Source of the DNA: Candidatus Woesearchaeota archaeon
Lineage (GTDB): Archaea; Nanobdellota; Nanobdellia; SCGC-AAA011-G17; JACPIM01
Length of the DNA: 37,173 bases
Direction: 5' to 3'
Assembly (NCBI GenBank): GCA_964584825.1
Contig: CAZPBI010000004.1
Location: 1 to 37,173 of the forward strand
Part shown: piece after piece, positions 1 to 37,173 of the stretch
How positions within the stretch are numbered: position 1 is the first letter of the stretch
Layout: each line of letters opens with the position of its first letter
Program-made: the position numbers and the translations under genes
Notes under the pieces: generated by a model
The model's database searches: none
Told to the model about the DNA's origin: nothing
What the model saw: the letters and a program-made list of their open reading frames with translations, nothing else

Positions 1-170
1 ATAATCAATATTCGCATCAAGCCTTCCGCCCCCGCACCAGAATATCCCGTTGCAATCTTTATCCGAAACATTGAAATCAATCCTGTAATTTCCATCCCTA
101 ACTCCAATAATTTCCCCGCCATTGGGTCTTACTATATTCACATCAACAACTTGGTTTGAAGGAGGGATAG
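1..170 (-). repeat. Edge-truncated copy of the ~145-aa repeat domain shared with 1405..1835 and 4636..5520
   Basis: Reverse translation of nt 180-1 reads YPISIPPSNQVVDVNIVRPNGGEIIGVRDGNYRIDFNVSDKDCNGIFWCGGGRLDANIDY. This is colinear with PSNNPIDANTVKIDGNPDN...DGNLTIDFNVFDLDYNGSFWGIGRFDANIEA in 3233..8368. Confidence 0.7.
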
Positions 171-3018: not shown

Positions 3019-3026
3019 CAAATCCC

Positions 3027-3116
3027 TCACAAAATTCCTAATAGCTTTAAAATAACAAAAATCAAAATTAAAAACATTAAAACAAAAACTAAATGTTCAG
3101 CAATTTTATCTATCAT
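3027..3116 (-). CDS. 29-aa single-pass membrane peptide (below ORF-track cutoff)
   Basis: MIDKIAEHLVFVLMFLILIFVILKLLGIL. The ATG overlaps the end of the 41-aa ORF, and the stop lies 8 nt before ATG 3018. It fits the tight operon spacing, but there is no other support. Confidence 0.3.
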   Translation of the reverse strand: MIDKIAEHLVFVLMFLILIFVILKLLGIL

Positions 3117-3231
3117 TTAATTTTCCTTTTTTAATTTTCTCATTGATTTCCCACCAAGTCATTTCGTCACATGAAAAATCATCACTTAATCCTTTAGTAT
3201 AAAACTTTTTTTCAAACTTTGTAAGTTTCAT
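3106..3231 (-). CDS. 41-aa hypothetical protein (below ORF-track cutoff)
   Basis: MKLTKFEKKFYTKGLSDDFSCDEMTWWEINEKIKKGKLNDR. The ATG lies 1 nt after the stop of 3233..8368. It fills an otherwise empty gap in the operon. Confidence 0.3.
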   Translation of the reverse strand: MKLTKFEKKFYTKGLSDDFSCDEMTWWEINEKIKKGKLNDR

Positions 3232-3232
3232 T

Positions 3233-8682: not shown

Positions 8683-8712
8683 ACTATTATATTATATAAT
8701 ATATATTTTTCT

Positions 8713-9312
8713 CTATATAAATCTTTTTATTTTACTTCTAAATACATATCCCAAAATTACTAAAACAACCAAAATTGCAATAATTGTATTTGTTCCTATT
8801 TTGCCAGTTATTGCCTCATTAACTACAGGAATTTTACACAAACTTTCATCAATATATTTAAATTCAATCATATTTTTCATTTCACAATCTGAAGTTAATG
8901 GGTTTATTGTATTAACCTCAATTTCCCTGCTCTGTAAAACCCTTCCATCTTCTTTACATTCAACATTTTTCCAATCGCCTAAAATCTCTTTTCCTTCGCA
9001 TAATTTACATCTCTCATCTGCTATATCTCTATATTTTGTTTCTGAAACAATGTTGCAAGTAGATGGCTGATTGAACTGCCTAACTTGAGACTGGTGCATT
9101 TCTCCTTTTAGACAAAATTCATCTTTCCAATCAGTTAATTTTTCTGTTGCTCCATAGCAAACACAATTTGTAGTATTGGAAACACCTCCAATCCCTAGAT
9201 ATGAATAATTTGTTGGATGTATGTCTTTTACACTACTTTCACAATAAGTTGTTGCATTCACTGCTGCTAAAAATGCAATTGCAAATAGCAGAATTAAAAT
9301 TAATTTTTTCAT
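8713..9312 (-). CDS. Cys-rich type-I membrane protein (signal peptide + C-terminal anchor)
   Basis: Signal MKKLILILLFAIAFLAAVNA. C-terminal TM plus basic stop-transfer IIAILVVLVILGYVFRSKIKRFI. Internal duplication CVCYGATEKLTDWKDEFC / CKLCEGKEILGDWKNVEC. Confidence 0.8.
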   Translation of the reverse strand: MKKLILILLFAIAFLAAVNATTYCESSVKDIHPTNYSYLGIGGVSNTTNCVCYGATEKLTDWKDEFCLKGEMHQSQVRQFNQPSTCNIVSETKYRDIADERCKLCEGKEILGDWKNVECKEDGRVLQSREIEVNTINPLTSDCEMKNMIEFKYIDESLCKIPVVNEAITGKIGTNTIIAILVVLVILGYVFRSKIKRFI

Positions 9313-11768: not shown

Positions 11769-12644
11769 TTATGCTGTTAGATTTGATAAATTTACATCAC
11801 TAATTTCTACTAATCTTGTTTTTACAAACGCTGCTAAAAATATCACAGCAATTACGAAAGCAACAATTATCAATAGCGATTTGTCCGGAAGTACACTTGT
11901 TGGAGCAAAAAACAAGGCAAGTGTATTATTAACAATATGCGCACTCATCGGAATTATGAAGTCCTTATAGACAACTGCTAATCCTAAAAAGAAAAATCCC
12001 ATCACAAGTTGAGGTATAGCCCCGACGTACGCAGATGTCCCAATGCCCTTTGTATCACTTACGAAGCTAATAAATCCTCCAATGCTATATTCATATGCCT
12101 CCTTTCCTCTTACTGCAAAATGGAAGGCTGCAAAGACTAATGAGACAATTACAATTGAAGTAATTACAGGGTAAGGAACTTTTTTGCTGCGAAGAATTAG
12201 TGAAATTATTATCATTGCGGTAATGACTAAGAATGTCTCAGTTATGGGTTGAATTAATGTGGCAAACAGAACGCTTTCATTTCCTATACTTCCCAATTCT
12301 GCAAATGTTATGCTTCCCATCAAATTATTCAAAGCAGAAATTCCAGACATGAGAAATCCGATGGTGACAATCAAAAGTACGCCCCACACAAAACCTACTG
12401 ATAATCTACTAAATAATTTTTGTTGATTAGGAACATCAAAATATTCCCCTACTTCTTTCTTTTTGCGAGTAGCAAATATGAGAATGGTACTTCCGACAGT
12501 ACCCGCGAGTAGGAGATTCCATAAGGAAGCCTCCCTGGTTGATAATTCTGGACTAACTGTGAAAAGGAAGAGTGAACTGATAGTAACAAGAAATACTAGA
12601 TATAAAATTACATTACTTTCAAGTTTTGGCATTTTAAAAATCAC
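11769..12644 (-). CDS. CPBP/Abi (CAAX-protease-like) family intramembrane protease homologue, divergent
   Basis: Polytopic protein. It has motif 2 F-x3-H (VFAAFHFAVRG) and motif 3 H-x3-N (MSAHIVNNTL). Motif 1 is degenerate (ITETFLV instead of EExxxR). There is no Cys, so it is not an archaeosortase. The tracked start is GTG 12644; ATG 12632 (MPKLES...) behind AGGTG is likelier. Confidence 0.6.
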   Translation of the reverse strand: MIFKMPKLESNVILYLVFLVTISSLFLFTVSPELSTREASLWNLLLAGTVGSTILIFATRKKKEVGEYFDVPNQQKLFSRLSVGFVWGVLLIVTIGFLMSGISALNNLMGSITFAELGSIGNESVLFATLIQPITETFLVITAMIIISLILRSKKVPYPVITSIVIVSLVFAAFHFAVRGKEAYEYSIGGFISFVSDTKGIGTSAYVGAIPQLVMGFFFLGLAVVYKDFIIPMSAHIVNNTLALFFAPTSVLPDKSLLIIVAFVIAVIFLAAFVKTRLVEISDVNLSNLTA

Positions 12645-20618: not shown

Positions 20619-20831
20619 AAGTTTTTACCTCCTTCTTAGTATATGGAGTTATTCTTTTGTATAGAGAAGGCAAACTAATTTATTTATTAGATATATAATT
20701 AGCTTCCCCTCACACCAAAAAACAACTTCCTCCTTTCCCTACTTTTTTCACTGCCTAATAAAAGACAGTTACTTTTTTTAGGTTTAGATGGAGCTGTTGA
20801 GTAACTCCAATATATTTTATAAATCTTTCAC

Positions 20832-20873
20832 TATATAAAGGTTTTTATTTTGGAGGAGTTTTGGAGTGTTTTG
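20832..20873 (-). promoter_or_regulatory. Leftward promoter of the structural operon: TATA (TTTATATA in minus sense, 20832-20839) + A-rich spacer + tandem C-rich upstream element
   Basis: The minus-sense reading CAAAACACTCCAAAACTCCTCC-AAAATAAAAACC-TTTATATA aligns with the elements at 25388..25424 (minus) and 26040..26082 (plus). Confidence 0.5.
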
Positions 20874-21934: not shown

Positions 21935-22735
21935 TCACTTATTCATATCAGATGAAATTTGTATAAAAGGTAACACTCCACCTGTAGCAAGTGGCAATTT
22001 CCCATCCCATTTTTGAGTGGCAAGATATGTAATGTATTGTGGGCTTTTGATTAACTGTCTATTAATAATTTCAATTGCATTTGCATCTCCTTCTGCCTTT
22101 GCTGCTGCTTGTAATGCTTCAATTTTTATTCTCTCTAAATCAAATTCACTTTTCAATTTCAATTGTTGAGCAACAACTTTCTGCTCAATTGATTTGTTAA
22201 ACTCTTCCGAAAATTTAAAATCAGTAATGCTAATTGTCTCTACAACAATATTATATTGCTCTAATCTTTCTAAAATTGCTTCATCAATTTTTTGTTTTAC
22301 TAAAGGGCGTTGAGTTATTAATTCCTCTGCTTTGAAATTTGCAGTAGCAGCTTTTACTGTCTCCTGAATTGCTGGGTCAATTATTCTTACTACATAATCC
22401 TTTCCTACTTTTTGATAAATTTCGCTTACTTTATCTGGACGAAGATGATAATTCAAAGCAACAGTGGTATTTACAATTTGCAAATCCGATGATGCTGCTT
22501 CTGCTTTTGCCTCTTCCTTTAAAGTTCTTACACTAAGTATATCCACAGTTTGAGCTATTGGAATAACAAAATGTATTCCTTCGTCTAAAACATTTTTATT
22601 TACTGCACCCCATGTCAATAAGATGCCTCTTTCTCCTGGTCCAACAATTTTAACTGTTAAAGTTAAAAGTAGAATAACCATAACAAACCCAAATATTATT
22701 TTAGCAATTAATGGCATTATATCTTCTTCTTCCAT
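21935..22735 (-). CDS. SPFH/Band-7 protein of the prohibitin type
   Basis: An N-terminal TM, then GERGILLTWGAVNKNVLDEGIHFVIP. NFKAEELITQRPLV matches prohibitin RFDAGELITQRELV, and FSEEFNKSIEQKVVAQQ matches FGKEFTEAVEAKQVAQQ. The 266-aa length is prohibitin-like. Confidence 0.9.
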   Translation of the reverse strand: MEEEDIMPLIAKIIFGFVMVILLLTLTVKIVGPGERGILLTWGAVNKNVLDEGIHFVIPIAQTVDILSVRTLKEEAKAEAASSDLQIVNTTVALNYHLRPDKVSEIYQKVGKDYVVRIIDPAIQETVKAATANFKAEELITQRPLVKQKIDEAILERLEQYNIVVETISITDFKFSEEFNKSIEQKVVAQQLKLKSEFDLERIKIEALQAAAKAEGDANAIEIINRQLIKSPQYITYLATQKWDGKLPLATGGVLPFIQISSDMNK

Positions 22736-25329: not shown

Positions 25330-25387
25330 TTTAACACCTATTTTTTACCTATTTTTTATTTAATTAATATATATATAAATAATGACC

Positions 25388-25424
25388 TTTATAAATCTTT
25401 TTATTTTGGACAGGAGTTTGAAGG
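25388..25424 (-). promoter_or_regulatory. Leftward promoter (TATA 25388-25395, minus sense) with C-rich upstream element
   Basis: The minus-sense reading CCTTCAAACTCCTGTCC-AAAATAAAAAGA-TTTATAAA lies about 60 nt upstream of ATG 25329. It aligns with 20832..20873 and 26040..26082. Confidence 0.5.
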
Positions 25425-26472: not shown

Positions 26473-26655
26473 ATGACAGAAAGTAAAATAATAGAAATAG
26501 AAAAAATTTTTAATGGCTTTATTGTAGATATAGAGCCACAAAAAAAGTATTATTTCAAAAGTCTTGAAGAAGTAAAAAAACATATATCTGATTTTTTAGA
26601 TATAATAGAAGGAAATCATGAAGAACGAAGAAATGATAATTGGACACATACATAA
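26473..26655 (+). CDS. 60-aa hypothetical protein
   Basis: The tracked start 26464 is GTG. ATG 26473 follows AAAGGAGGTGA. I recognised no motif. Confidence 0.55.
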   Translation: MTESKIIEIEKIFNGFIVDIEPQKKYYFKSLEEVKKHISDFLDIIEGNHEERRNDNWTHT

Positions 26656-26672
26656 ATTTTAGGAGAGAAAAA

Positions 26673-28133
26673 ATGTACCGCTATCAGGAATTATTAAAAA
26701 TTTGGATGAAATATACTGATTGTTTTTGTGTAAGTAATGAATGGTTAAAAGAACCTCTATTTTGGGTTCTTAATTCACAATTATTGAGGGCGACATTTAC
26801 TGAAGGAGGAGTTAAACGCCCTTTAAGAGAGCATTTCTTTTGCGTGCAGGGCGCACGAACAGGGAAGGGCAGAGCAATGAGAGCTGCCAAGCATATGTTT
26901 ATGTTTTTTAATAGAGAAGAAAGAGAGAAGAGAGAAAGAATAGCGAAAGAGGCATTAAATAAAATTAATTTAGAGATGATAGGATTAGATGAAAGTAAAA
27001 GTATTGAAAATACAACTACATCTACTACAACTACAAATATTGATTTAAATAGCAATGCCGAGTTTTACAATAAGTTTGATGAAAACACACTTGATGAAGA
27101 AGGTGTGTTTAATGTAAAAGAATTATCAGGTGAAGTAACTCTTGCTGCACTAGTAGGAGGAATTGAGTATGAAAGTCATAAAGGAAAAGTGAGTAAAATC
27201 ATAAAAAAAGGAATGCTTGAAAAATATAACTATCTTTGTTGGGAAGAAGGAGGAGATTTGGTTGCTCCTAGGAATTTATATGGTAATTTAAAATCAACAA
27301 TTCTAAATGCTCTTGAAGATGCTTCTCCTATTACTCGTTCTGCAAGAAAGGATTTAAATTTAGATGGTAGTATGTCTTCTTTTTATAGCCACACAAGTGT
27401 AGCAACGGGAACTGTGTTAATACCTGAAATAACAAAGGACTTCCAAGCAAGTGGAATGTTACAAAGGTTTTTATTTAGTTATAAAAACTTTACTCCTGAT
27501 GAATATGATGATTTGATAAAAAGAATAAATCTTCTTCCTGCTCAGAGAAGTGTAGCAGAAGGAAATGAATACAAACATGAATATCATCATGCATTCTATA
27601 ACAAATACTACGAAAAGGATATTTGTTTAGGTGATAAACATACATTAGAGGAATATAATGCATTCAAGATGAAAGAAGTAGAGCCGTTGAGAAAAAAGTT
27701 TGTAGGTGATAACAAAGTTCAGACAATGATGGGGTTTATAATTCAAAACACACTGCATGACCATAAAATAGCAAGTATGATTGCTTCTCTTGAAAATGAA
27801 AAAATGGTTAGTTTGGATATGTATAAGGAAGCGAATAAATACACCTATAGTAGTTTGGAAAGTATAGCAAAATTAATGGAAAGGGATTTTACTTATGCCA
27901 AATCAGAGGGTGAGATTAAAAGGCAAGATTCAATTTTGAATATAATTAAAAATAATCAACCAATAAACCAATCTAACTTACTTGAAAAGTTAAGAAACAT
28001 TCAATCAGAAGGGAAATGGGATTTTAGGTATAATTCATCATTGAAATTATTAGAAGAGATGGAAAAAGCAAGAATAATAAAAACAACAAAAGGAGGAAAA
28101 GGTAATGTTAAATTCTATTCCTTTTCAAGATAA
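26673..28133 (+). CDS. AAA+-like ATPase with C-terminal winged helix; candidate replication initiator/helicase (distant MCM/Orc-Cdc6-like)
   Basis: The tracked start 26640 is TTG. ATG 26673 follows AGGAGAG. Deviant P-loop CVQGARTGKGRA; acidic Walker-B-like YLCWEEGGD; GMLQRFLFSY resembles the MCM arginine-finger context LLSRFDL. The C-terminal LLEKLRN...LKLLEEMEKARIIKTTKGGKGNVKFY looks like a wHTH. The assignment is tentative. Confidence 0.4.
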   Translation: MYRYQELLKIWMKYTDCFCVSNEWLKEPLFWVLNSQLLRATFTEGGVKRPLREHFFCVQGARTGKGRAMRAAKHMFMFFNREEREKRERIAKEALNKINLEMIGLDESKSIENTTTSTTTTNIDLNSNAEFYNKFDENTLDEEGVFNVKELSGEVTLAALVGGIEYESHKGKVSKIIKKGMLEKYNYLCWEEGGDLVAPRNLYGNLKSTILNALEDASPITRSARKDLNLDGSMSSFYSHTSVATGTVLIPEITKDFQASGMLQRFLFSYKNFTPDEYDDLIKRINLLPAQRSVAEGNEYKHEYHHAFYNKYYEKDICLGDKHTLEEYNAFKMKEVEPLRKKFVGDNKVQTMMGFIIQNTLHDHKIASMIASLENEKMVSLDMYKEANKYTYSSLESIAKLMERDFTYAKSEGEIKRQDSILNIIKNNQPINQSNLLEKLRNIQSEGKWDFRYNSSLKLLEEMEKARIIKTTKGGKGNVKFYSFSR

Positions 28134-28375
28134 AAGTAAAGAGAATACAATACAAAATACTACTACTCATCAAAAGATTGAATAGAAAATGAAAAATTAA
28201 AAAAATAAAGATAAAAAAGGAAAAAAAATAGTGATGAATTATATGTTTTTTTCAAGATAAGGATTAATTGATTAATTATAAAAAATTAAGTATACCTATA
28301 TATTTAAATATAACCTCCTATATAATATATTAAAGGTTATAAGAGATTTATAAAATTGTATAAAGGAATGATAAG

Positions 28376-28606
28376 ATGGCGGAAGAACCAATTAGTAAAG
28401 AAGTATACAAGAAAAACTTATACGACACTGGAGGCTCACTTGCTGTAGTAATTCCAAAAAACTTTTTAGATGAACTGGAGTTAGAGTTGGGAAAAGAGAC
28501 AGAAGTAATGATGTGTATAGATGAGGGAAAGTGGGGAAAGTTTTTAGCAGTATGGAGTACCGCACAGCAAGAGAGAAAGAGAAAAGAAATGAAAGAAGAG
28601 AAATGA
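28376..28606 (+). CDS. AbrB/SpoVT-family DNA-binding protein (cassette 2 head)
   Basis: TGGSLAVVIPKNFLDELELELGKETEV is the AbrB core. TTTATAAAA lies about 27 nt upstream of the ATG, so the transcript may be near-leaderless. Confidence 0.7.
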   Translation: MAEEPISKEVYKKNLYDTGGSLAVVIPKNFLDELELELGKETEVMMCIDEGKWGKFLAVWSTAQQERKRKEMKEEK

Positions 28607-28630
28607 AAAGATTTGTGAGGAGGTAAGAAA

Positions 28631-29704
28631 ATGGTAAGTAAGGAAGAAGTATTCAAATATATTATAGATGGGGGTCTATCTACACCTGAGAAATTAGAAG
28701 AAGCATATAAAGTAGTTTGGAATGATTCATTAATAGTACATCCTGGAATGAGTGAAGAGCAACGCACAGCTTATATATTGACAATAATATTAGGAAGAGT
28801 AAAAGGTGTTTTTGGTTTGGGAGGATTTTTTATTGGTTATGGTGACCAGTTTGATGTTAATGTAAAAGCAAGAAAACGGGCACTACAACTTAATCACTAT
28901 TCTACAGAAGGTTCTACAGTAGGAAAACTCATATACAAAGATATGCCAACCAATCAAAATTTTAGGGAAGGAGAAATTATTCCTACAGAGGCAGAAAGTT
29001 TATCAAGATTGTGCTATGGAGTGTTTTGGGAAAAGAATAAGGAAGGAAAAATTCCTGATATTTCCTTATGGAAGCCGTTTAGTTTGTGGTTAAGAGAAAC
29101 CAACGATGTGTTTCCTTTATTTACTGTGTTGGAATTTAGAGCAACAGGAAAAATAACAGGAACAACACCTACTCTTAATTCAGATGGAATTTCCTACAAA
29201 ATTGTAAAAGACGAGAAGATAAACTTTCCACAAATAGCAAAACTATTTTTGAAAAACAATATCACAACACTGAAAGATTTGCCTAACTTCCAGAAAGTTG
29301 TTGGTTTTCCAATAGAGATAATTAATGCACAAGTAGTTAGGTTTACAAAAACCTCGCCTAGTAAAAAGGCAGATGTAGTAGAGTTGAGAAGTTATAGTAG
29401 AAATATTGAAGAGCTGGATACAGAAACACCAAACTATACATTATTTATCAATAAACAACTTGATTTGGATTTGCATGAAGGAGATATAGTATGGTGTGTT
29501 GTGGATAAATTTACAGGAAGAGATGGTAGTATTGGAGTAAGGGGTTATGGGTTTTGGATAGAGGAAAGTAATGCTCCTATTTCTCCTCCTCAACCTCTTA
29601 CTATTGAGAATATATCTACAAATTCTCCTATAATAGAAGGAACAACTACAGTAATTAGTGAAGAAAAAACAGAAGGCGAAAATAAGGAGGAAACAGAATG
29701 GTAG
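28631..29704 (+). CDS. 357-aa protein, possible ssDNA-binding protein (OB-like C-terminal half + acidic tail ending in Trp)
   Basis: SD GAGGAGGT. The segment AQVVRFTKTS...VVELRS...LHEGDIVWCVVDKFTGRDGSIGVRGYGFWI looks like an OB-fold. The acidic C-terminal tail EEKTEGENKEETEW is typical of SSB tails. The position matches that of SSB in phage replication modules. Confidence 0.3.
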   Translation: MVSKEEVFKYIIDGGLSTPEKLEEAYKVVWNDSLIVHPGMSEEQRTAYILTIILGRVKGVFGLGGFFIGYGDQFDVNVKARKRALQLNHYSTEGSTVGKLIYKDMPTNQNFREGEIIPTEAESLSRLCYGVFWEKNKEGKIPDISLWKPFSLWLRETNDVFPLFTVLEFRATGKITGTTPTLNSDGISYKIVKDEKINFPQIAKLFLKNNITTLKDLPNFQKVVGFPIEIINAQVVRFTKTSPSKKADVVELRSYSRNIEELDTETPNYTLFINKQLDLDLHEGDIVWCVVDKFTGRDGSIGVRGYGFWIEESNAPISPPQPLTIENISTNSPIIEGTTTVISEEKTEGENKEETEW

Positions 29705-30639
29705 AAAATGAAAAAGCAGATAATTTATTGTTTATGCCTTCACAACCACAACAAACTCAGATTGTTGGAGAGAAAAAAGAAATAACAAAAACTCCTGTAA
29801 AAGAATCAACATCAGAGGAATTGATAAAATTTACAGATGAGGATATTAGGAAATATTTATTTGATGGAGAAACAGATATGGAAAAGAAATTATGTACATT
29901 AATTTATGGGGTGGATGGGACTGGGAAATCGGGAATTGTTCTAAATTATATTGCCAAAAATTTGAAAGATGAGGAAAAGTCTGTCATAATTGATTTAGAT
30001 AGCGGTTGTCTTCCATTAATAGCAAGTTATTATCCAGAAAAAGCAAAACAAATGATTGTAAGAAATCCAATAAGTATGACTTTTTTAGAAAATGAAGTAG
30101 TTTTGGACTATAAACTTACTCTTTCAAGAATTAAGGCGATTGTTGATTTTGTTAAACGTTATCATAAGAAAGAGAAGATAAAAGCACTTACAATTGATGG
30201 AATTAGTACACTCCTAAAGTATGCAGAAAGACAAATGAGACTTGAAAAGCATATTGCACCCGATGGGGGAGTTGTAAACAGATTTTGGATGGTTCGTAAC
30301 CAAATGTTTGAAGAGATTTTAGAAGAGGCAAAAAGTATAGGTATTAATGTATTTTTTATAAGCCAAGAGGATTTTATTCCTATTCCTCAAGGAGTAGTTG
30401 ATGATTCAGGTAATCCTCAAAAATTAAGTAGCATCAAAAGTAAAGCTAACGCAATGGCTCATCAAAAAATAAGATGTTTTAGAAAAGATGATATTGATAA
30501 AGTAGAATATATAGCAATTATCGACAAGAGCAAATATAATTCTCTCTGCGACGGGAAAAGTATTGTTTTTTGTACAGTTGATAAAAAAGCAAAAACTGTT
30601 ACATTTGACACAAGTGAAATTTTCAAGGAGTTAATTTAG
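29698..30639 (+). CDS. RecA-superfamily ATPase of the Sak4/AAA_24 type (recombination/annealing helper)
   Basis: Walker A is LIYGVDGTGKSG and Walker B is ALTIDGISTL. The later FWMVRNQMFEEILEEAKSIGINVFFISQE follows the AAA_24 pattern. The ATG overlaps the previous stop. Confidence 0.55.
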   Translation: MVENEKADNLLFMPSQPQQTQIVGEKKEITKTPVKESTSEELIKFTDEDIRKYLFDGETDMEKKLCTLIYGVDGTGKSGIVLNYIAKNLKDEEKSVIIDLDSGCLPLIASYYPEKAKQMIVRNPISMTFLENEVVLDYKLTLSRIKAIVDFVKRYHKKEKIKALTIDGISTLLKYAERQMRLEKHIAPDGGVVNRFWMVRNQMFEEILEEAKSIGINVFFISQEDFIPIPQGVVDDSGNPQKLSSIKSKANAMAHQKIRCFRKDDIDKVEYIAIIDKSKYNSLCDGKSIVFCTVDKKAKTVTFDTSEIFKELI

Positions 30640-30661
30640 AAAATAAAAGGAGTTGATATAA

Positions 30662-31399
30662 ATGACAAGGTTTGAAGTAAATGCAGAAACTTTGAGTAGC
30701 TTTTTCAGTAAAATAAACCTAGATGAATTTAACATTAAGGTGTGTAAGGAAGGTTGGTTCGTAGAGGGAATCGACAGAGAGAATTTAAGCGCTGTTTTTG
30801 GAATATTGAAAAAGAATGCTTTTTTCACATACCCTACAATTGAAGAAGAAAAATTAATAGGAATTGAAAGTAAGGAAAAGTTTTTAAAATTCCTTGAAAG
30901 ATTTGATGATAAAATATCAATAGAAGTAAAGGAGAAAGTGTTATATATAATTTCACTAAATCGCCAACTGGAGATGATACTTCCACATGAAAGTATTTTG
31001 GTCAAAACCAAGCAACCTAATCTAACATATCAAGGAAATTTTACAATAAAATCAGAGGTGTTTAAACAAGCGGTAAAGAATAATCAATTACTTGAATCGA
31101 GTAAATACATACTACAAATAACAGAAGGAGAATTATCAATTGTCTCCACAAACAATGTTGATAAGATTATTGAAATAGCGAAAATAAACTACCCAAATTG
31201 TAAGGGAGTATTTGGAGATAAAATTAGAGAGGTATTTACTCCATTAAGCGGAGATGTTAAAATTTCACTTTCTACAAACTATCCCCTGCTAATAGAGTAC
31301 GAAGATAAAGTAAGTGAGTTGAAATATGTGATTGCGCCAATTGTAGAGGAGGAAAATTATGGAAAAGATAATGCCGTGGGTGGAGAAGTACCGGCCTAA
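30662..31399 (+). CDS. pcna: PCNA-type sliding clamp
   Basis: The 245-aa length is typical of PCNA. The N-terminus is MTRFEVNAETLSSFFSKINLDEFNIKVCKEGWFVEGID. The C-terminal ELKYVIAPIVEEE matches the PCNA signature (human HLKYYLAPKIEDEE). Confidence 0.85.
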   Translation: MTRFEVNAETLSSFFSKINLDEFNIKVCKEGWFVEGIDRENLSAVFGILKKNAFFTYPTIEEEKLIGIESKEKFLKFLERFDDKISIEVKEKVLYIISLNRQLEMILPHESILVKTKQPNLTYQGNFTIKSEVFKQAVKNNQLLESSKYILQITEGELSIVSTNNVDKIIEIAKINYPNCKGVFGDKIREVFTPLSGDVKISLSTNYPLLIEYEDKVSELKYVIAPIVEEENYGKDNAVGGEVPA

Positions 31400-32267
31400 A
31401 GAATTTGAGGAGGTAATAAACCTTCCAAAGTATATTCCCACAATTGTAGAAAAAAATATGCCTCATTTATTGTTAGTGGGAAGCCCTGGAACTGGGAAGA
31501 CGACAGTAGCAAGGATTATTATAAATAAATTAGGTGCGGAATATTTGGAATTAAATGCCTCTGATGAAAGAGGGATTGATGTAGTAAGGAATACAATAAA
31601 ACATTTCGCCTCTACACAATCATTTAACAATAAAATAAAAATAGTATTTTTAGACGAGTGCGATGGGATGACGCAAGAAGCAATGGAAAGCTTAAGAAAT
31701 ACAATTGAAAAATATAGTGGAGTTTGTAGGTTCATAGGCAGTGCAAATAATTTGAATAAAATTACTTCTGCTCTAAAAAGTAGATTTTCTGTTTTACAAT
31801 TTACTAATCCTCCTGAAGAAGATATAAGAAAAAGATTAGAGTATATTTTAAAACAAGAAGGTGCAATTTGTGACGATGAAATTTTGAAAAGAATAATTAA
31901 GCATTATTTTCCTGACATCCGTCAAATGATTAACGTGTTACAAATAAACGAAGATAAAGGAAAAATAGTTGAAAATAGAAATATTTTAAGTGAAAACATA
32001 ACACAAACTATTTACAATTATTTAAAAGCAAAAGCATTTCCAGCAATTAGGGAACGAATTGTTAAGAACGGAATTAATGTAAGTGAATTACTTGAGGGAT
32101 TAGAGGAAAGAATTTTTAATGATAATAGTATAACAACAGAAAAAAAGAAAAAATTGCTAATGTTTTTGTGTGAATGCAATCGTAATATATCAAGTGTTGC
32201 TATCCCAAGATTAGAATTTGAAGATTTTACATTAAAATTTATAAGTGAGTTAGGAGAAACAAAATGA
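31359..32267 (+). CDS. rfcS: Replication factor C small subunit (clamp loader AAA+)
   Basis: PWVEKYRPKEFEEVI (RFC box II), LLVGSPGTGKTT (Walker A), VFLDECDGMT (Walker B), ALKSRF (the SRC-motif position). It overlaps the PCNA gene by 41 nt. SD GAGGAGG. Confidence 0.9.
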   Translation: MEKIMPWVEKYRPKEFEEVINLPKYIPTIVEKNMPHLLLVGSPGTGKTTVARIIINKLGAEYLELNASDERGIDVVRNTIKHFASTQSFNNKIKIVFLDECDGMTQEAMESLRNTIEKYSGVCRFIGSANNLNKITSALKSRFSVLQFTNPPEEDIRKRLEYILKQEGAICDDEILKRIIKHYFPDIRQMINVLQINEDKGKIVENRNILSENITQTIYNYLKAKAFPAIRERIVKNGINVSELLEGLEERIFNDNSITTEKKKKLLMFLCECNRNISSVAIPRLEFEDFTLKFISELGETK

Positions 32268-32753: not shown

Positions 32754-33422
32754 ATGTTTGTAACGGAAATTTTCTGCTCAACGGAAGGAGAGGGAATAAG
32801 AGTAGGAACTCCTGAGGTGTTTATAAGGTTTGCTGGATGTTCAATTGGTTGCCGTGCGTGCGATACACCTTACGCCTTAAATAAAGAAAATGGAAAAGAA
32901 ATGAGTGTAGAAGAAATTGTTGAGGAAATTGAAAAATATAAAATAAAAAATGTTGTATTGACAGGAGGTAGCCCCTTAGAACAAGAATTAGAGGAATTGA
33001 GGGAATTGATATATAAATTGAAAAGATATTATTATTATGTTGTGCTTGAAGAAAGTGGTCAAAAGTATGATAGCGAAATTTTTGATATTGTGGATTTTCT
33101 TTCTTTGGATATTAAAACCCCTAGTAGTGGAGTAAAAATTAATGAGGAAACTTTCTATTACATAATAAGTATGTTTAAGAAAAATAAATATCAATTTAAA
33201 ATGGTTGTTAGTGATGATAAAGATTGGGAGTTTGTAAAAAAGATTGTTAATAGATATGGAGATAAAAATTTTGTAGTGACCCCTTGTTGGAATATTAACC
33301 AAGAAAATGTAAATGTGGAATTAATAGAAAAAATATTGAAGGATTTGCAAGAAAATACATTACCTATCAGAATTATCGTACAGCAACATAAGTTGTTGTA
33401 CAAACATAAGAGAGGTGTATAA
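32754..33422 (+). CDS. queE: 7-carboxy-7-deazaguanine synthase (radical SAM)
   Basis: The N-terminal EIFCSTEGEGIRVGTPEVFIRFAGCSIGCRACDT carries the QueE-type C-x3-C-x2-C cluster motif and the preceding QGEG-like box. Confidence 0.85.
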   Translation: MFVTEIFCSTEGEGIRVGTPEVFIRFAGCSIGCRACDTPYALNKENGKEMSVEEIVEEIEKYKIKNVVLTGGSPLEQELEELRELIYKLKRYYYYVVLEESGQKYDSEIFDIVDFLSLDIKTPSSGVKINEETFYYIISMFKKNKYQFKMVVSDDKDWEFVKKIVNRYGDKNFVVTPCWNINQENVNVELIEKILKDLQENTLPIRIIVQQHKLLYKHKRGV

Positions 33423-33423
33423 G

Positions 33424-33600
33424 ATGATTTTATGTGAAGAATGTGGAACTTCAAACTGGGAAATAGTAATAGAAGATTTAGAAAAAAAAGGTGAAGAAGG
33501 TAAATTTTTTCTTTTACAATGTATAGAATGTAAAAGAACAGTAGCATTAGAAGGAAATCCACAAGATATTTTAAATGCTAAAAAGACGGAATTTATATGA
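33424..33600 (+). CDS. 58-aa zinc-ribbon protein
   Basis: The tracked start 33415 is GTG. ATG 33424 follows AGAGGTG. The Cys pairs are CEEC ... CIEC. Confidence 0.6.
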   Translation: MILCEECGTSNWEIVIEDLEKKGEEGKFFLLQCIECKRTVALEGNPQDILNAKKTEFI

Positions 33601-33611
33601 GGTGAAAGAAA

Positions 33612-33815
33612 ATGGAAGATATTGTAGAGAAAAAAGAAGGAAAAATAAGTTATGCAATTGAAAAAGGAGTAATCGTTCAATTAAATAAAACAACAAAAGG
33701 AACTTACTCATATGTGTTGAGAATTGGAGGTATTCCTAATTTTGCAGAGGCTTTAGACCAATTATTCGAGGCGAAAAGAAGATTAGAAGGGTTAATAAAG
33801 GAGGAAGTAAAATGA
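33612..33815 (+). CDS. 67-aa hypothetical protein
   Basis: SD GAGGTGA. The stop overlaps the queC ATG (ATGA). No motif recognised. Confidence 0.6.
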   Translation: MEDIVEKKEGKISYAIEKGVIVQLNKTTKGTYSYVLRIGGIPNFAEALDQLFEAKRRLEGLIKEEVK

Positions 33816-34552
33816 GTAAAAAAGCAGTATGTATTGTCAGCGGAGGGATGGACAGTGTAACTCTTCTACATAAAGCAGTTAAAGAATTAGGAAAAGAAAA
33901 TGTTAGTGTATTGAATTTCCATTATGGAAGCAAACATAATAATAGGGAAAGGCCTTTTGCAAAATTAAACGCAAAACTTTTAGGTGTTAAATATACAGAA
34001 ATAAATTTGGATTATATCAATAAATTATGGAAATCTGATTTATTGAAAAGTGGTGGAAAAATTCCAGAGGGGCATTATGCGCAAGATAATATGAAATTAA
34101 CTGTAGTGCCGTTTAGGAATGGAATAATGTTAGCAAATGCTGTAGGATTTGCAGAAAGTATAGGATTTAATGAAGTATGGTTAGGCAGCCATAAAGGAGA
34201 TAGGGCTCAGTATAAAGATTGTTCTAAGGAATTTACAAAAGCAATGAGTAAAGCAGCAGAGATAGGAACTGATAAAGGAATAAAAATTCTTTCTCCTTTT
34301 AATAATATAATGAAATCAGATATTGTAAAAATAGGAGTTGAATTAAAAGTTCCTTATGAAAAAACATTTAGTTGCTATGTTGGAGAAAAAAGGCCATGCT
34401 TGCGTTGTGGAACTGATGTTGAAAGAACTGAAGCATTTTATAAAAATAACATAAAAGACCCTCTTCTTACAATTAAGGAATGGGAAATAGCAGTTAGTTA
34501 TATGAAGAAAACATTAAAAGAATTTGATAAAAAACAAAAGGTAAAAATATGA
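33812..34552 (+). CDS. queC: 7-cyano-7-deazaguanine (preQ0) synthase
   Basis: PP-loop AVCIVSGGMDSVTLL. The C-terminal Cys cluster is SCYVGEKRPCLRCG. The length and order match QueC. Confidence 0.85.
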   Translation: MSKKAVCIVSGGMDSVTLLHKAVKELGKENVSVLNFHYGSKHNNRERPFAKLNAKLLGVKYTEINLDYINKLWKSDLLKSGGKIPEGHYAQDNMKLTVVPFRNGIMLANAVGFAESIGFNEVWLGSHKGDRAQYKDCSKEFTKAMSKAAEIGTDKGIKILSPFNNIMKSDIVKIGVELKVPYEKTFSCYVGEKRPCLRCGTDVERTEAFYKNNIKDPLLTIKEWEIAVSYMKKTLKEFDKKQKVKI

Positions 34553-34653
34553 AAAAGTGTTTTGTTTGTAGTGGAAGTAAAAAGACAAAAACATCTGTAA
34601 TGAGAAAGTATATTTGCAAACCGTGTTTTGAAAAGATTAAAGTGAAAAAATGA
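34549..34653 (+). CDS. 34-aa zinc-ribbon mini-protein (below ORF-track cutoff)
   Basis: MKKCFVCSGSKKTKTSVMRKYICKPCFEKIKVKK (CxxC ... CxxC). ATGA overlaps with queC upstream and the PRTase gene downstream. Confidence 0.5.
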   Translation: MKKCFVCSGSKKTKTSVMRKYICKPCFEKIKVKK

Positions 34654-35051
34654 ATAAAATGAGTAAGAAATTCATAACCTGGGAGGAAATGGACAGAGTT
34701 GTAGAGGATTTGGCAGAGAAGATTAGAAAAACAAAACATAAGTATAGTGCAATATACTTTGTTCCAAGAGGAGGAGCAATTCCTGCTGTAATGCTTTCAC
34801 ATAAATTAAATCTTCCATTTACACACTTACCAATAGATGAGAATATTTTAATTGTGGATGAAATTGTTGATGGAGGAAAGACATTATTATTCCATAAAAA
34901 GATATGTAGCAAATCCTCTAAATTTGCAAGTTGTTATGTGAAGGAATGTACTATTGAAAAACCAGACTTTTTTGTTGAGGAAATTCCAAAAAATATATGG
35001 TTGGTATTTCCATGGGAAACTGAAAAAACTTCGAGGAGAGATAACAAATGA
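34650..35051 (+). CDS. Xanthine-guanine phosphoribosyltransferase (Gpt)-like type-I PRTase
   Basis: ITWEEM, FVPRGGAIPAVMLSHKLN, the PRPP loop ILIVDEIVDGGKT and NIWLVFPWE are colinear with E. coli Gpt as I remember it (VTWDML, AVSRGGLVPGALLAREL, IVIDDLVDTGGT, DTWIEQPWD). Confidence 0.7.
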   Translation: MNKMSKKFITWEEMDRVVEDLAEKIRKTKHKYSAIYFVPRGGAIPAVMLSHKLNLPFTHLPIDENILIVDEIVDGGKTLLFHKKICSKSSKFASCYVKECTIEKPDFFVEEIPKNIWLVFPWETEKTSRRDNK

Positions 35052-35443
35052 AAGGAGAATATATTTTAAGTAAAAAGTTTGAAATTGCTGCATCACATAA
35101 GTTAGAAGATAAAAAACTAACATATGAAGAAAATAGAAAAATATTTAATCACTGTAATGATTTGCATGGCCACAGTTTTATTATAGAAATTTTGTTAAAA
35201 GGAAATAATTTAAACAATGGAATGCTGATAAATTTTAGCAAGTTAAAAGAATTTTTTGAAGAAAAAATAAAACCTTTTATAGACCATAAACATTTGAATG
35301 ATATACTTGTTTTACCTACATCAGAAAATTTAGCAAAGTTTATCTATACAATTTTTAAAGGAGAAAAAACCTTTTCAAAATTACTTTATGCAATTAGAGT
35401 ATATGAAAGTTTAAATTCATATATAGAGTATAAGGAGGAATAA
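35048..35443 (+). CDS. queD: 6-carboxy-5,6,7,8-tetrahydropterin synthase
   Basis: CNDLHGHSFIIEI (the Cys-x3-HGH catalytic/zinc motif of QueD/PTPS). The ~130-aa size fits. ATGA overlap upstream. Confidence 0.8.
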   Translation: MKGEYILSKKFEIAASHKLEDKKLTYEENRKIFNHCNDLHGHSFIIEILLKGNNLNNGMLINFSKLKEFFEEKIKPFIDHKHLNDILVLPTSENLAKFIYTIFKGEKTFSKLLYAIRVYESLNSYIEYKEE

Positions 35444-35446
35444 ATA

Positions 35447-35986
35447 ATGGAGGAAGAAATAAAAAAGATTTTAGAAGGAATAGGAGAAAATCCAGATAGA
35501 GAAGGATTAAAAGATACTCCAAAAAGAGTTGTAAAAAGTTTTGAAAAATTATATGGAGGATATAAAGATGATTATAAAAAACATTTAACAACTTTTGATG
35601 CTGAAGGTTATGATGGAGTGATTTTATTGAAAGACATTGAATTATATTCTACTTGCGAGCATCATATGCAAATTTTTGAGGGCAAGTGCCATATAGCTTA
35701 TGTCCCAAATGGAAAGATTATAGGAGTAAGTAAGTTGATTAGGATTATGGAAATATTTGCGAGGAGACTACAAATCCAAGAGCGTCTAACAAAACAAATT
35801 GCAGATGCCTTACAGGAAATTCTCAATCCTCTTGGATTGATGGTATATATTGAAGCACAACACTTCTGTATAAGAAGTAGAGGTGTAGAAAAACAAAATA
35901 GTGTAATGGTTACTTCTGTTCTAAAAGGAAAATTCTTAACGGAACCAGAAATGGAAATGAAAATTCTTCAAATGATTAAAAAATGA
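35447..35986 (+). CDS. folE: GTP cyclohydrolase I
   Basis: YSTCEHHMQIFEGKCHIAYVPNGKIIGVSKLIRIMEIFARRLQIQERLTKQIADAL matches the GCH-I core almost motif for motif. Confidence 0.9.
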   Translation: MEEEIKKILEGIGENPDREGLKDTPKRVVKSFEKLYGGYKDDYKKHLTTFDAEGYDGVILLKDIELYSTCEHHMQIFEGKCHIAYVPNGKIIGVSKLIRIMEIFARRLQIQERLTKQIADALQEILNPLGLMVYIEAQHFCIRSRGVEKQNSVMVTSVLKGKFLTEPEMEMKILQMIKK

Positions 35987-36002: not shown

Positions 36003-36134
36003 ATGGCGTTTGGTAAATATACAATTTCCTTCAAAGGATGCACAGATAGTATGGAAGATGTTTTCGGCAGTGAAGGCATTCCTCCTTCACAAATGATAAA
36101 GAGAATATGGGAATATGTAAAAGAGAAAAAATTG
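36003..36134 (+). CDS. 43-aa ORF with SWIB-like helix motif (below ORF-track cutoff)
   Basis: AGGAGGT SD. In MAFGKYTISFKGCTDSMEDVFGSEGIPPSQMIKRIWEYVKRKN, the segment V-x-G-x-x-x-x-P-x-x-x-x-x-K-x-[IL]-W-x-Y-[IV]-K resembles the first half of SWIB/MDM2 domains. This is weak. Confidence 0.3.
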
Positions 36135-36161
36135 AGCAGTAAGTAAAAGGAGGAGATAAAA

Positions 36162-36677
36162 ATGGAAGAAAAACCAAAAGAAGAAAATAGAGGAATAGAA
36201 GGAAGTCAGTGGAGTTATGGAAGTAAAATGGAAAGTTTTACAGAGGAGGAATTGAAAGAAAGGATAAAAAAAGCAATGGAGTATGAAATTCCAAATAAAA
36301 TTCGTCCTATTCCTTTTATGGGAAATGAAAGAGAATTAATCCGATATAGATACTCAGAATTAATAGCTCGTTGTCCGGTGACTGGGATTAGCGACATGTA
36401 CGACATACTGATTGACTTTATTCCCTCCAATACAATCCCAGAGTTAAAAAGTCTAAAAATTTATTTCTGGGCATATCAGCAACTTCCAATCTCTCACGAA
36501 CATTTAGCAGCAAAAGTCTATAACGACTTTACAAAAACAATAAATCCTAAAGAATGTAAACTAACATTACTTGTCAGTGAGAGAGGAGAATTAAGAACAT
36601 CAGTTGTGTTAGGAAAAATATCTCTACAAAACGGAGAAGGTTTTGATAGAGAATATATAAAACCTTATCAATGGTAA
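36162..36677 (+). CDS. queF: NADPH-dependent 7-cyano-7-deazaguanine reductase (preQ0 to preQ1), unimodular type
   Basis: The catalytic Cys context is LIARCPVTGISDMYD. QueF motif ELKSLKIYF, then SHEH. It is 171 aa with a charged N-terminal extension of about 40 aa. Confidence 0.8.
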   Translation: MEEKPKEENRGIEGSQWSYGSKMESFTEEELKERIKKAMEYEIPNKIRPIPFMGNERELIRYRYSELIARCPVTGISDMYDILIDFIPSNTIPELKSLKIYFWAYQQLPISHEHLAAKVYNDFTKTINPKECKLTLLVSERGELRTSVVLGKISLQNGEGFDREYIKPYQW

Positions 36678-36727: not shown

Positions 36728-37173
36728 ATGTATAGCCTAAAGGGAAGTTTAGAAAAGCAATTGGGTTATATATCCCATATTACACTAACTCCTTTAGATG
36801 TAGAGTTTAGTTTTAATGGAAAAGTGGAGAATTTTAAAATAACTCCTCCTTCTAAACTCTATATCTCTCCTAATTTTTTTAGAAGTGGTAAGTGTGAAAG
36901 ATGCGGAAAGTGTTGTAAAGTGGGGTATTGGTGTATATTTGGAGAAAAAGATATAGAAAAGGCTAAAAGTTTAGGTAATGAGGATTTAATAAAGAGAGTT
37001 AAAAAGTTAGATATAAAAATTAATAATATTCCTCATACTCTTTATGTTTTTAATATGGTGAATAATATTTGTCCATACTTGAAAATGGATGATGGTCTTT
37101 CTACTTGCCTTATACATAATTCCAAACCTCTACATTGTGAAATGCCACCAATAAAGTTGAAGAAAGGTAAGAA
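36728..37173 (+). CDS. YkgJ-type CxxCxxCC cysteine-cluster (zinc/iron-chelating) protein, partial (runs off the right edge)
   Basis: ATG 36728; the frame is open to nt 37173. It has CERCGKCCKVGYWC and a later CPYLKMDDGLSTCLIHNSKPLHCEMPP, which is the typical second half of this family. Confidence 0.6.
   Translation, partial: MYSLKGSLEKQLGYISHITLTPLDVEFSFNGKVENFKITPPSKLYISPNFFRSGKCERCGKCCKVGYWCIFGEKDIEKAKSLGNEDLIKRVKKLDIKINNIPHTLYVFNMVNNICPYLKMDDGLSTCLIHNSKPLHCEMPPIKLKKGK

Follow-up and report, generated by a model that had tools for sequence, protein, structure and literature searches.

A phosphoribosyltransferase gene within a string of que genes

The window analysed here, a stretch of 37,173 nucleotides (contig CAZPBI010000004.1, positions 1 to 37,173, of assembly GCA_964584825.1, filed under Candidatus Woesearchaeota archaeon), belongs to a very novel virus or mobile element and carries, close to its 3′ end, a string of genes for the synthesis of 7-deazaguanine bases. 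Within this string, between queC and queD, lies the gene studied here, which encodes a 133-residue, xanthine-guanine-type phosphoribosyltransferase (PRTase; 34650-35051). The modification of DNA with 7-deazaguanines is a major phage counter-defence, and its gene set is held to consist of FolE, QueD, QueE, QueC, DpdA and tailoring enzymes. The PRTase, which lacks a loop and in some phages is joined to FolE, genuinely belongs to viral 7-deazaguanine clusters, in which it is conserved and has so far gone unexplained.

All genes of the string are on the forward strand. It begins with queE (32754-33422; Pfam Radical_SAM/Fer4_12; 1e-38 to 1e-28 with NCBIfam QueE models, none of which reaches its cut-off) and continues, past a 67-residue open reading frame (ORF) without a family match (33612-33815), with queC (33812-34552; Pfam QueC, 1.4e-52; TIGR00364, 162.9 bits against a cut-off of 150.3). 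Next come a 34-residue ORF (34549-34653) and the PRTase gene, which has a second in-frame ATG at 34659. Downstream of them lie queD, for the 6-carboxy-tetrahydropterin synthase (35048-35443; Pfam PTPS, 6.6e-24), folE, for the GTP cyclohydrolase I of the GTP-consuming entry step (35447-35986; Pfam, 2.9e-69), and a gene for a unimodular QueF-like protein (36162-36677; Pfam QueF, 5.7e-14; TIGR03139, 70.5 bits, below the cut-off of 86.9). The preQ0 pathway set of FolE, QueD, QueE and QueC is therewith present in full.

As the earlier note on this DNA had described, ATGA start/stop overlaps chain queC, the 34-residue ORF, the PRTase gene and queD to one another. They are read straight from the sequence at 34549-34552, 34650-34653 and 35048-35051, and one more, at 33812-33815, joins the 67-residue ORF to queC. 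The que block is consistent with a single translationally coupled unit, and the overlaps agree with the proposal that the four products are made together: the PRTase is probably co-translated with the que genes. A scan of the block for promoter and terminator consensus sequences gave counts at chance level, which are uninformative on internal signals.

The QueF-like protein is probably a preQ0 reductase giving preQ1, with an amidinotransferase as the alternative. A catalytic Cys, an E-x-K-S-x-K motif and a His-Glu pair align with what we take to be the sequence of Bacillus subtilis QueF. Since these motifs are kept, the predicted end product of the cluster is preQ1, though the score lies below the equivalog cut-off. 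The 34-residue ORF has two CxxC pairs and a sub-threshold match to Pfam Gin (18.9 bits against 27). It is probably a real small gene, because it fills the gap exactly, because its start and stop are coupled to the neighbouring genes, and because only about 7% of random 34-codon stretches are free of stops at the base composition of the window.

DpdA-family transglycosylases are the signature proteins of viral 7-deazaguanine DNA-modification clusters (Cui et al. 2023). In the window, none was found by tblastn with three DpdA-like proteins, by a scan for the DSGG motif, or with an iterated hidden Markov model (HMM), which was seeded with PRTase neighbours of weak TGT/ArcTGT similarity and with the annotated DpdA of Flavobacterium phage immuto. 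A Pfam scan of 30 ORFs of the window, the largest among them, gave neither TGT nor DUF6610. The contig ends about 0.5 kb after the que cluster with a forward frame open to the last base, while a minus-strand frame of at least 1032 residues is open to position 1, and no terminal repeats were found in the window. Since the window is a fragment whose ORFs run off both ends, the absence of DpdA from it is uninformative.

Fold, active site and a missing loop

The PRTase is recognized by Pfam PF00156 (30.1 bits, cut-off 26.3) and by PHROG 8995, 'phosphoribosyl transferase' (2e-17). Its best sequence match in the Protein Data Bank (PDB) is the purine PRTase of Pyrococcus horikoshii (1vdm, E 1e-15), and further solved relatives are GpT-1 and GpT-2 of Sulfolobus solfataricus and the xanthine-guanine PRTases (XGPRT) of Escherichia coli (5e-8) and Yersinia. 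An AlphaFold2 model, computed from an input alignment of 30 homologues, reached a pLDDT of 90.8. Foldseek placed it closest to the hypoxanthine-guanine-xanthine PRTase (HGXPRT) of S. solfataricus, to 1vdm and to E. coli XGPRT (E ~1e-11, TM ~0.8). From this model we confidently predict an XGPRT/HGXPRT-like fold for the 133-residue protein. The Gpt-like PRTase that the earlier note had recognized among the que genes is in this way supported by Pfam, PDB and structure matches, as well as by the alignment that follows.

Aligned with E. coli XGPRT, whose reference sequence was checked against 1A95 beforehand, R40-G41-G42 of the PRTase correspond to R37-G38-G39, D70/E71 to D88/D89, D74 to D92, K98 to K115, W117 to W134, and P121-W122-E123 to P138-W139-D140. 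We take these positions to be the pyrophosphate (PPi) loop (RGG), the acidic pair of the phosphoribosyl pyrophosphate (PRPP) motif, the Asp by N7, the Lys at O6 and the stacking Trp. Residues 66-78, LIVDEIVDGGKT, align with the PRPP motif of E. coli XGPRT. With one more residue, 65-78, or ILIVDEIVDGGKT, they show the PRPP motif of type I PRTases, that is, a hydrophobic strand and two acidic residues followed by D-(T/S/G)-G-x-T, aligned to D88-T96 of the E. coli enzyme. The terminal FPWE (residues 120-123) aligns with the W134...P138-W139-D140 region.

One element of the E. coli enzyme has no counterpart. Residues ~55-83, which form a beta-hairpin and the flexible loop, are replaced in the PRTase by a short 'FTHLPID'. 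The XGPRT equivalog NF006613 is missed as well (69.3 bits against a cut-off of 138, with the match in two stretches). 'Gpt-like' is correct for the fold and the pocket, while the equivalog threshold and one defining structural element are not reached. To our knowledge, all characterised type I PRTases have such a flexible loop, which shuts the active site and in E. coli XGPRT carries Arg69.

A large viral family of mini-PRTases

PRTases lacking the hairpin and the flexible loop, about 20-30 residues, form a large viral family. A word-indexed search returned 155 relatives of the window protein, of which the closest are 39-45% identical, 126-144 residues long and mainly from marine metagenomes. 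An exhaustive HMMER search over 1.84 billion cluster representatives gave 885 clusters at E ≤ 1e-10, and the best 150 are nearly all 115-150 residues long. The distance between the RGG and the acidic pair reflects the deletion, with a median of 32 residues in the best HMMER clusters versus 51 in E. coli XGPRT. In IMG/VR, a relative is encoded on at least 376 viral contigs, and about 65 records of cultured phages carry a mini-PRTase.

The active site is strongly conserved throughout the family. The PPi loop R40-G41-G42 is invariant, and the other aligned catalytic and binding positions are invariant or nearly so. This includes the equivalents of the 6-oxopurine pocket, W117, K98 and D74, the last of which is Asp in 113 of 114 representatives.

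The nearest relatives of the window PRTase anywhere are at most 47% identical, and it is therefore without close relatives; its 90% cluster has a single member. IMG/VR holds no close relative of the QueF-like protein either, and a search of genome contigs for relatives of the window gave three loci only, none of them close.

Genomic company of the PRTase

The genomic neighbourhood was surveyed in the best 80 IMG/VR loci with a PRTase homologue, over 10 kb on either side. FolE was present in 57 of the 80 loci, QueE in 54, QueD in 49 and QueC in 38, and all these pathway genes share the orientation of the PRTase gene. Chance co-location of the PRTase and FolE is ruled out by a baseline of only 0.8% (FolE in 406 of 50,697 cultured phage records), which corresponds to a ~90-fold enrichment (binomial P ~1e-100). 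In 47 of 66 loci no other que-family gene lies nearer to the PRTase gene than FolE, and the gap between these two genes is at most 300 nt in 43 of 57. With at least one preQ0-pathway gene in 63 of the 80 loci, the co-occurrence of Gpt-like genes with viral que clusters, which the earlier note had named as a point to check, is borne out. No que gene was seen within the available sequence of the remaining 17 loci, many of which are truncated, and a 150-residue relative of the PRTase lies beside a ribonucleotide reductase (RNR) with neither FolE nor que genes nearby.

The PRTase travels with DpdA-like genes of several subfamilies and not in their stead. Of the 63 loci with que genes, 42 gave a DpdA-like match with the iterated HMM, and so did 29 of the 34 loci at which the preQ0 set of four is complete. 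Of the 21 que-bearing loci that gave no match, 18 extend for less than 8 kb to one side. In 32 loci the DpdA-like protein groups with immuto gp206 (DpdA3), and the others are of a ~393-residue 'GDSGG(Y/F)Q' type, an 'LDSGAF' type and an 'ADSGGLQ' type. That the PRTase accounts for a missing transglycosylase is not supported, both because the window is a fragment and because its relatives so often have a DpdA-like neighbour. At three loci, each with 8 kb or more of sequence to either side, the 10-kb surroundings of the PRTase gene contain no DpdA-like gene; L051 and L084 have QueD-QueE-FolE-PRT, and L053 has QueE only.

The same pattern of PRTase, que and DpdA-like genes recurs in independent metagenome contigs. 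Closest in arrangement to the window is L104, a contig of a metagenome-assembled genome, with ligase-QueD-QueE-QueC-PRT-Hjc-like resolvase and the same 'DGG' in the PRPP motif. A MazG/PRA-PH-like NTP pyrophosphohydrolase is encoded in 38 of the 80 loci, and DCD- or HD-type genes in further ones.

A conserved partnership of the PRTase with the putative 34-residue zinc ribbon was rejected. Only 7 of the 80 loci have small CxxC ORFs close to the PRTase gene, these ORFs are, by eye, mutually dissimilar, and L104 has no zinc-ribbon ORF. Of the zinc ribbon proposed in the earlier note, the ORF itself and its two CxxC pairs stand, while the family assignment stays with the sub-threshold Gin match and related loci offer no conserved counterpart.

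Six immuto-like contigs show a reduced gene set. L051, L084, L047, L057, L061 and L070 carry QueD-QueE-FolE-PRT-MazG-like without QueC, QueF or a DpdA-like gene on the available sequence, which in L051 and L084 extends at least 8 kb to each side of the PRTase gene and in the other four is truncated on one side. These contigs possibly represent a variant of the pathway ending at 7-carboxy-7-deazaguanine (CDG). The pocket positions of the PRTase (D74, K98, W117 and others) stay the same whether the predicted end product of the locus is CDG, preQ0 or preQ1.

Individual loci add further neighbours. In L009/L010 (441-2213), the QueE-like radical-SAM gene adjoining the PRTase gene is split by an intein (Hint/Vint; 590 residues). 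A gene of the IMPDH/GMP-reductase family lies just 5′ of QueD-QueE-QueC-FolE-PRT-DpdA-like-HD in L001 (3878-4666), and a gene for a HIT-family nucleotide hydrolase/transferase directly follows that of a 169-residue PRTase in the large phage contigs L098/L099 (7500-7874). In L050 (3808-6092), a YhhQ/Vut_1 transporter and an amidase are encoded between FolE and the PRTase.

Cultured phages and fusions with FolE

Cultured phages with a PRTase of this kind infect various bacteria. Flavobacterium phage immuto_2-6A (immuto) encodes QueD, QueE, the PRTase (gp211), FolE, a MazG-like 'hydrolase', DpdA, a formyltransferase, a kinase and QueF. Brevundimonas phages, including MaInes (MAINES_00780), have the order QueC-QueD-QueE-x-DpdA3-like-pol-RNR-dNMP kinase-FolE-XPRT, with a full-length PRTase, and Synechococcus phage BUCT-ZZ01 has QueE-XGPRT-x-QueD-FolE and then a DpdA-like gene. 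In Cellulophaga phage phiST, a fold search of BFVD led to the PRTase gp064 (27% identity, E 3e-11), which has RNase H and RNR in its vicinity, while in Campylobacter phages including CP220 (YP_009169316) the PRTase gene adjoins a hypothetical gene and a radical-SAM QueE. These PRTases form one clade with that of the window, at 27-38% identity, and keep the same company (FolE, QueD, QueE, DpdA-like). In other respects the element in the window, with almost no Pfam or PHROG matches, is unrelated to these phages. A DpdA-like gene is present in immuto, MaInes, BUCT-ZZ01, CP220 and Pseudomonas phage NP1; in phiST, judging from size and position alone, gp042 would be the DpdA-like protein (DpdA3).

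Immuto, phiST and CP220 have 100% of their G replaced, which was attributed to DpdA3; the activity of DpdA3 could not be reconstituted, and all 7-deazaguanine DNA modification was concluded to be post-replicative (Cui et al. 2023). A PRTase of the mini-PRT clade is present in all three of these phages. Comparison of their loci (L011, immuto gp203-gp211; L105, CP220 gp055-gp057; L106, phiST gp038-gp042) revealed a P-loop nucleotide kinase (AAA_28/AAA_18) beside DpdA3 in each, namely immuto gp203, CP220 gp057 and phiST gp041, the last next to the DpdA3-sized gp042. CP220 additionally has an HD+kinase protein at this locus. A MazG/PRA-PH-like NTP pyrophosphohydrolase follows FolE in immuto and phiST (gp039), and RNR lies near the PRTase gene in phiST and MaInes.

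The link with FolE extends to gene fusion. A tblastn search with the phiST enzyme matched the interior of genes annotated as 'GTP cyclohydrolase'. One of them, gp36 of NP1 (L108, 4809-5702), encodes 297 residues, with an N-terminal mini-PRT domain followed by a complete FolE (Pfam, 7.5e-71). The N-terminal domain matches the family profile with an hhalign probability of 98.7% (E 5e-16) and has the motifs PRGG, FFIDDLIDSGST, K and RWIVFPWE; a Pfam scan of gp36 did not flag it. Such fusions occur in 35 phage records, annotated 'GTP cyclohydrolase' (I), from phages of six host genera: Pseudomonas, Stenotrophomonas, Xanthomonas, Variovorax, Vibrio and Sphingomonas. In NP1, the fusion gene neighbours QueE, Gat-QueC, QueD and a DpdA annotated as 'queuine tRNA-ribosyltransferase'. 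One fusion-bearing phage, Quinobequin-P09, was sequenced by Hutinet 2019. Systems of the 9g type have ~25% of their G modified, according to the iggy/Queuovirinae paper. Compared with the window, the NP1-like (Queuovirinae) fusions have the same loop-less PRT domain (PRGG, IDDLIDSGST, K, WIVFPWE) in one polypeptide with FolE, whereas in the window the PRTase has a gene of its own and queD stands between it and folE.

Guanine salvage as the likely role

Each preQ0 costs one GTP, and each base exchange of the TGT type frees one guanine. We propose that the PRTase is a minimal 6-oxopurine (xanthine-guanine type) salvage enzyme on the supply side of the viral 7-deazaguanine pathway, a reading that we consider reasonably probable. 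The enzyme would convert free guanine, and possibly xanthine or hypoxanthine, to GMP with PRPP; host kinases would raise GMP to GTP, and the GTP would feed the co-expressed FolE and, through it, QueD, QueE, QueC and QueF. As each DpdA-type exchange would expel one guanine, the PRTase could close a cycle from guanine through GMP and GTP to a new deazaguanine. By keeping free guanine low, it may also lessen the competition for re-insertion.

We favour guanine salvage because the common denominators of the loci are FolE, as neighbour or fusion partner, and an exchanger of the DpdA type, and because the pocket has the make-up of a guanine/xanthine PRTase. In the Brevundimonas and Synechococcus phages, full-length XGPRT-like enzymes are found in this position, and the association is therefore one with the enzyme activity and not with the deletion. 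The pocket is also unchanged whatever the end product of the cluster, which fits a common substrate such as guanine. That the enzyme is active despite the missing loop, that guanine is its substrate, and that it recycles guanine and relieves competition, we infer from these patterns. The earlier note had named a boost of the GMP/GTP supply as a mundane alternative to its own proposal; in a sharper form, built on the FolE neighbour, the FolE fusion and the invariant purine pocket, this alternative is the one we prefer.

Several observations count against guanine salvage. The flexible loop is missing from the whole family, so that catalysis may be weak or altered. GMP is not a direct substrate of FolE, and the PRT-FolE fusion does not, therefore, imply channelling. 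No DpdA was found in the window. The fold, moreover, can handle 7-deazapurines, since the CDG-specific TubE of the tubercidin pathway was aligned by its authors with the S. solfataricus HGXPRT, the best structural match of the window PRTase. Finally, a PRTase in all three phages with 100% G replacement, together with the conserved MazG-like NTPases and P-loop kinases, resembles a pre-replicative system.

If guanine recycling is true, it would explain how the GTP cost of large-scale replacement is met and how base exchange is driven to completion. The PRTase bears directly on how complete replacement of G is achieved. As the smallest apparently functional type I PRT scaffold, the mini-PRTases are also of interest for enzymology and for biocatalysis with nucleotide analogues.

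Alternative roles

One alternative is the proposal of the earlier note, a PRTase that acts on the deazaguanine base itself. Like TubE and ToyH, it would join PRPP to CDG, preQ0 or preQ1, and kinases and RNR would carry the nucleotide on to a deoxynucleoside triphosphate for pre-replicative incorporation. We consider this unlikely. It has precedents among deazapurine PRTases in TubE, which is proven to be a CDG:PRPP transferase and is specific for CDG, and in the hypothetical ToyH. Both Streptomyces enzymes, of the tubercidin and toyocamycin pathways, are encoded with homologues of FolE, QueD and QueE (and QueC), as is the PRTase in the window, and the authors of TubE aligned it with S. solfataricus HGXPRT 4Z1O (written '4Z10' in their supplement), the top structural match of the window PRTase. 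The likeness of the two enzymes is drawn through this alignment only, and the settings differ. TubE, with 194 residues, belongs to a secondary-metabolite cluster with GMP-reductase, decarboxylase and Nudix genes and no enzyme for insertion into nucleic acids, whereas the window PRTase stands in a viral DNA-modification setting and its relatives carry DpdA. The GMP-reductase homologues ToyE and TubD are tailoring enzymes of the toyocamycin and tubercidin pathways, and no nucleotide-tailoring genes of the TubE/ToyH type were found among the window ORFs scanned with Pfam and PHROG. From the phages come three further arguments for a deazaguanine substrate: mini-PRT-clade enzymes in immuto, phiST and CP220, where G replacement is complete and DpdA3 activity could not be reconstituted (Cui et al.), the pre-replicative-looking kit of MazG/PRA-PH-like NTPases (38 of 80 loci, and phiST gp039), P-loop kinases by DpdA3 and nearby RNR, and the three loci with full flanks and no DpdA-like gene (L051, L084 and L053). 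The missing loop could, in addition, give space for a C7 substituent. Against all this, PRTase and DpdA-like genes occur together almost everywhere, which would make a TubE-like route of insertion redundant. In the NP1-like siphophages, too, the mini-PRT is fused to FolE in the presence of DpdA and Gat-QueC, in a 9g-type system, a type with ~25% of G modified. The Asp that contacts N7 in 6-oxopurine PRTases (D74) is invariant in all but one representative, and the pocket residues do not co-vary with the end product. The product of a PRPP-dependent reaction is a ribonucleotide, so that several more permissive enzymes would be needed, and the preferred neighbour is FolE, the first enzyme, and not the last base-forming one. 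The extended proposal, in which the mini-PRTase is the viral counterpart of TubE and, with the MazG-like NTPase and the P-loop kinase, forms a pre-replicative route that explains 100% G replacement, appears improbable to us to the same degree. If true, it would overturn the conclusion that all 7-deazaguanine DNA modification is post-replicative, and activity on deazaguanines of any kind would reopen the question of pre- versus post-replicative modification. One could also imagine a variant in which dGMP is the substrate for base exchange by DpdA3, with salvage of the guanine by the PRTase.

A quite different role, which we regard as rather improbable, is that of a non-catalytic, regulatory PRT-fold module that binds PRPP, a guanine nucleotide or a purine base and tunes FolE or the flux through the pathway. 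The PRT fold is used for sensing by PurR and PyrR. The deletion of hairpin and loop throughout the family (median 32 versus 51 residues) would suit such a module, as would the place of the PRT domain as an N-terminal appendage of FolE, which is typical of regulatory domains, and the failure of Pfam to recognize the fused domain. Strong conservation, however, covers all classes of residue that the chemistry requires (RGG, acidic pair, Asp74, Lys98 and stacking Trp) and not a binding patch alone, and in Brevundimonas, Synechococcus and Cellulophaga phages this genomic niche is taken by full-length XGPRT-like proteins that have the loop. Phages often carry genes for purine or pyrimidine salvage, and the PRTase could also be a generic auxiliary gene of this sort, placed in the same early or nucleotide-metabolism module without any specific tie to deazaguanines. 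The 17 of 80 loci where no que gene was seen in the available, often truncated sequence, and the 150-residue relative beside RNR without FolE, would fit this explanation. It is nevertheless already disfavoured, and we think it very improbable: FolE is ~90-fold enriched and mostly the immediate neighbour, PRT and FolE are fused in 35 records, and start/stop overlaps tie the window PRTase to queC and queD.

Relation to known enzymes and to the literature

The reference enzymes for the fold, E. coli Gpt (1A95), S. solfataricus HGXPRT (4Z1O/5BQO) and P. horikoshii PH0095 (1VDM), share with the window PRTase the type I fold, the RGG, the PRPP motif and the pocket. In contrast to these XGPRT/HGXPRT enzymes, the window PRTase is shorter by ~20-30 residues (hairpin and flexible loop), virus-encoded and part of a que operon. 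The pre-replicative tool kits for base replacement of T4 (dCTPase, dCMP hydroxymethylase, dNMP kinase) and S-2L (DatZ, MazZ, PurZ) can also be compared, the likeness being to the MazG-like NTPase, P-loop kinases and HD hydrolases of the relatives; none of these partners is in the window.

Published descriptions of viral 7-deazaguanine clusters appear to have passed over the PRTase, as the earlier note had suspected. Neither 'phosphoribosyl' nor 'PRTase' appears in the main text of Hutinet 2019, of Cui 2023 or of the iggy/Queuovirinae paper, and in the papers that could be searched the homologues of cultured phages have no assigned role. A limited literature search found no paper that treats DpdA and a phosphoribosyltransferase together in a phage context, and a description elsewhere is possible. 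A 'PRT' box, to be counted with these homologues, does stand beside 'GTP Ch' in the Far-T4 contig maps of Roux et al. 2015, uncommented.

Other features of the window

Three further small or incomplete ORFs, all on the forward strand, accompany the que genes. An ORF of 61 residues with two CxxC pairs (33415-33600) overlaps the end of queE and has a sub-threshold match to DUF7836 only, and one of 47 residues (36003-36146), between folE and the QueF-like gene, gives a partial SWIB/MDM2-like match (Pfam SWIB, 25.1 bits, cut-off 25). Directly 3′ of the QueF-like gene, and cut by the contig end, lies the gene for a CxxCxxCC cysteine-cluster protein (36728-37173; PF03692, 1.7e-6; phrog_32498), a protein that deazaguanine clusters are not known to include.

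The rest of the element is largely without recognizable relatives, as nearly all other ORFs of the window have no Pfam or PHROG match. This is also the case for a protein of 1711 residues (3233-8368, reverse strand) and the 5′-truncated ORF of at least 1032 residues at the contig start, which share diverged repeats of ~430-456 nt (window positions 1-8368). A replication block on the forward strand (26640-32267) encodes an AAA_24 ATPase, an ORF the size of PCNA and an RFC-like clamp loader ('WVEKYRP'). An SPFH/Band-7 protein (21935-22735) and a CAAX-protease-like protein (11769-12644) are encoded on the reverse strand. The window has a GC content of 31% and strong AAAGGAGG ribosome-binding sites. 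A repeated AT-rich intergenic motif (TATAAAT…CTATATAAA…TTTTTATTTTGGA) at 8700-8736, 20818-20854 and 25374-25410 is a candidate promoter.

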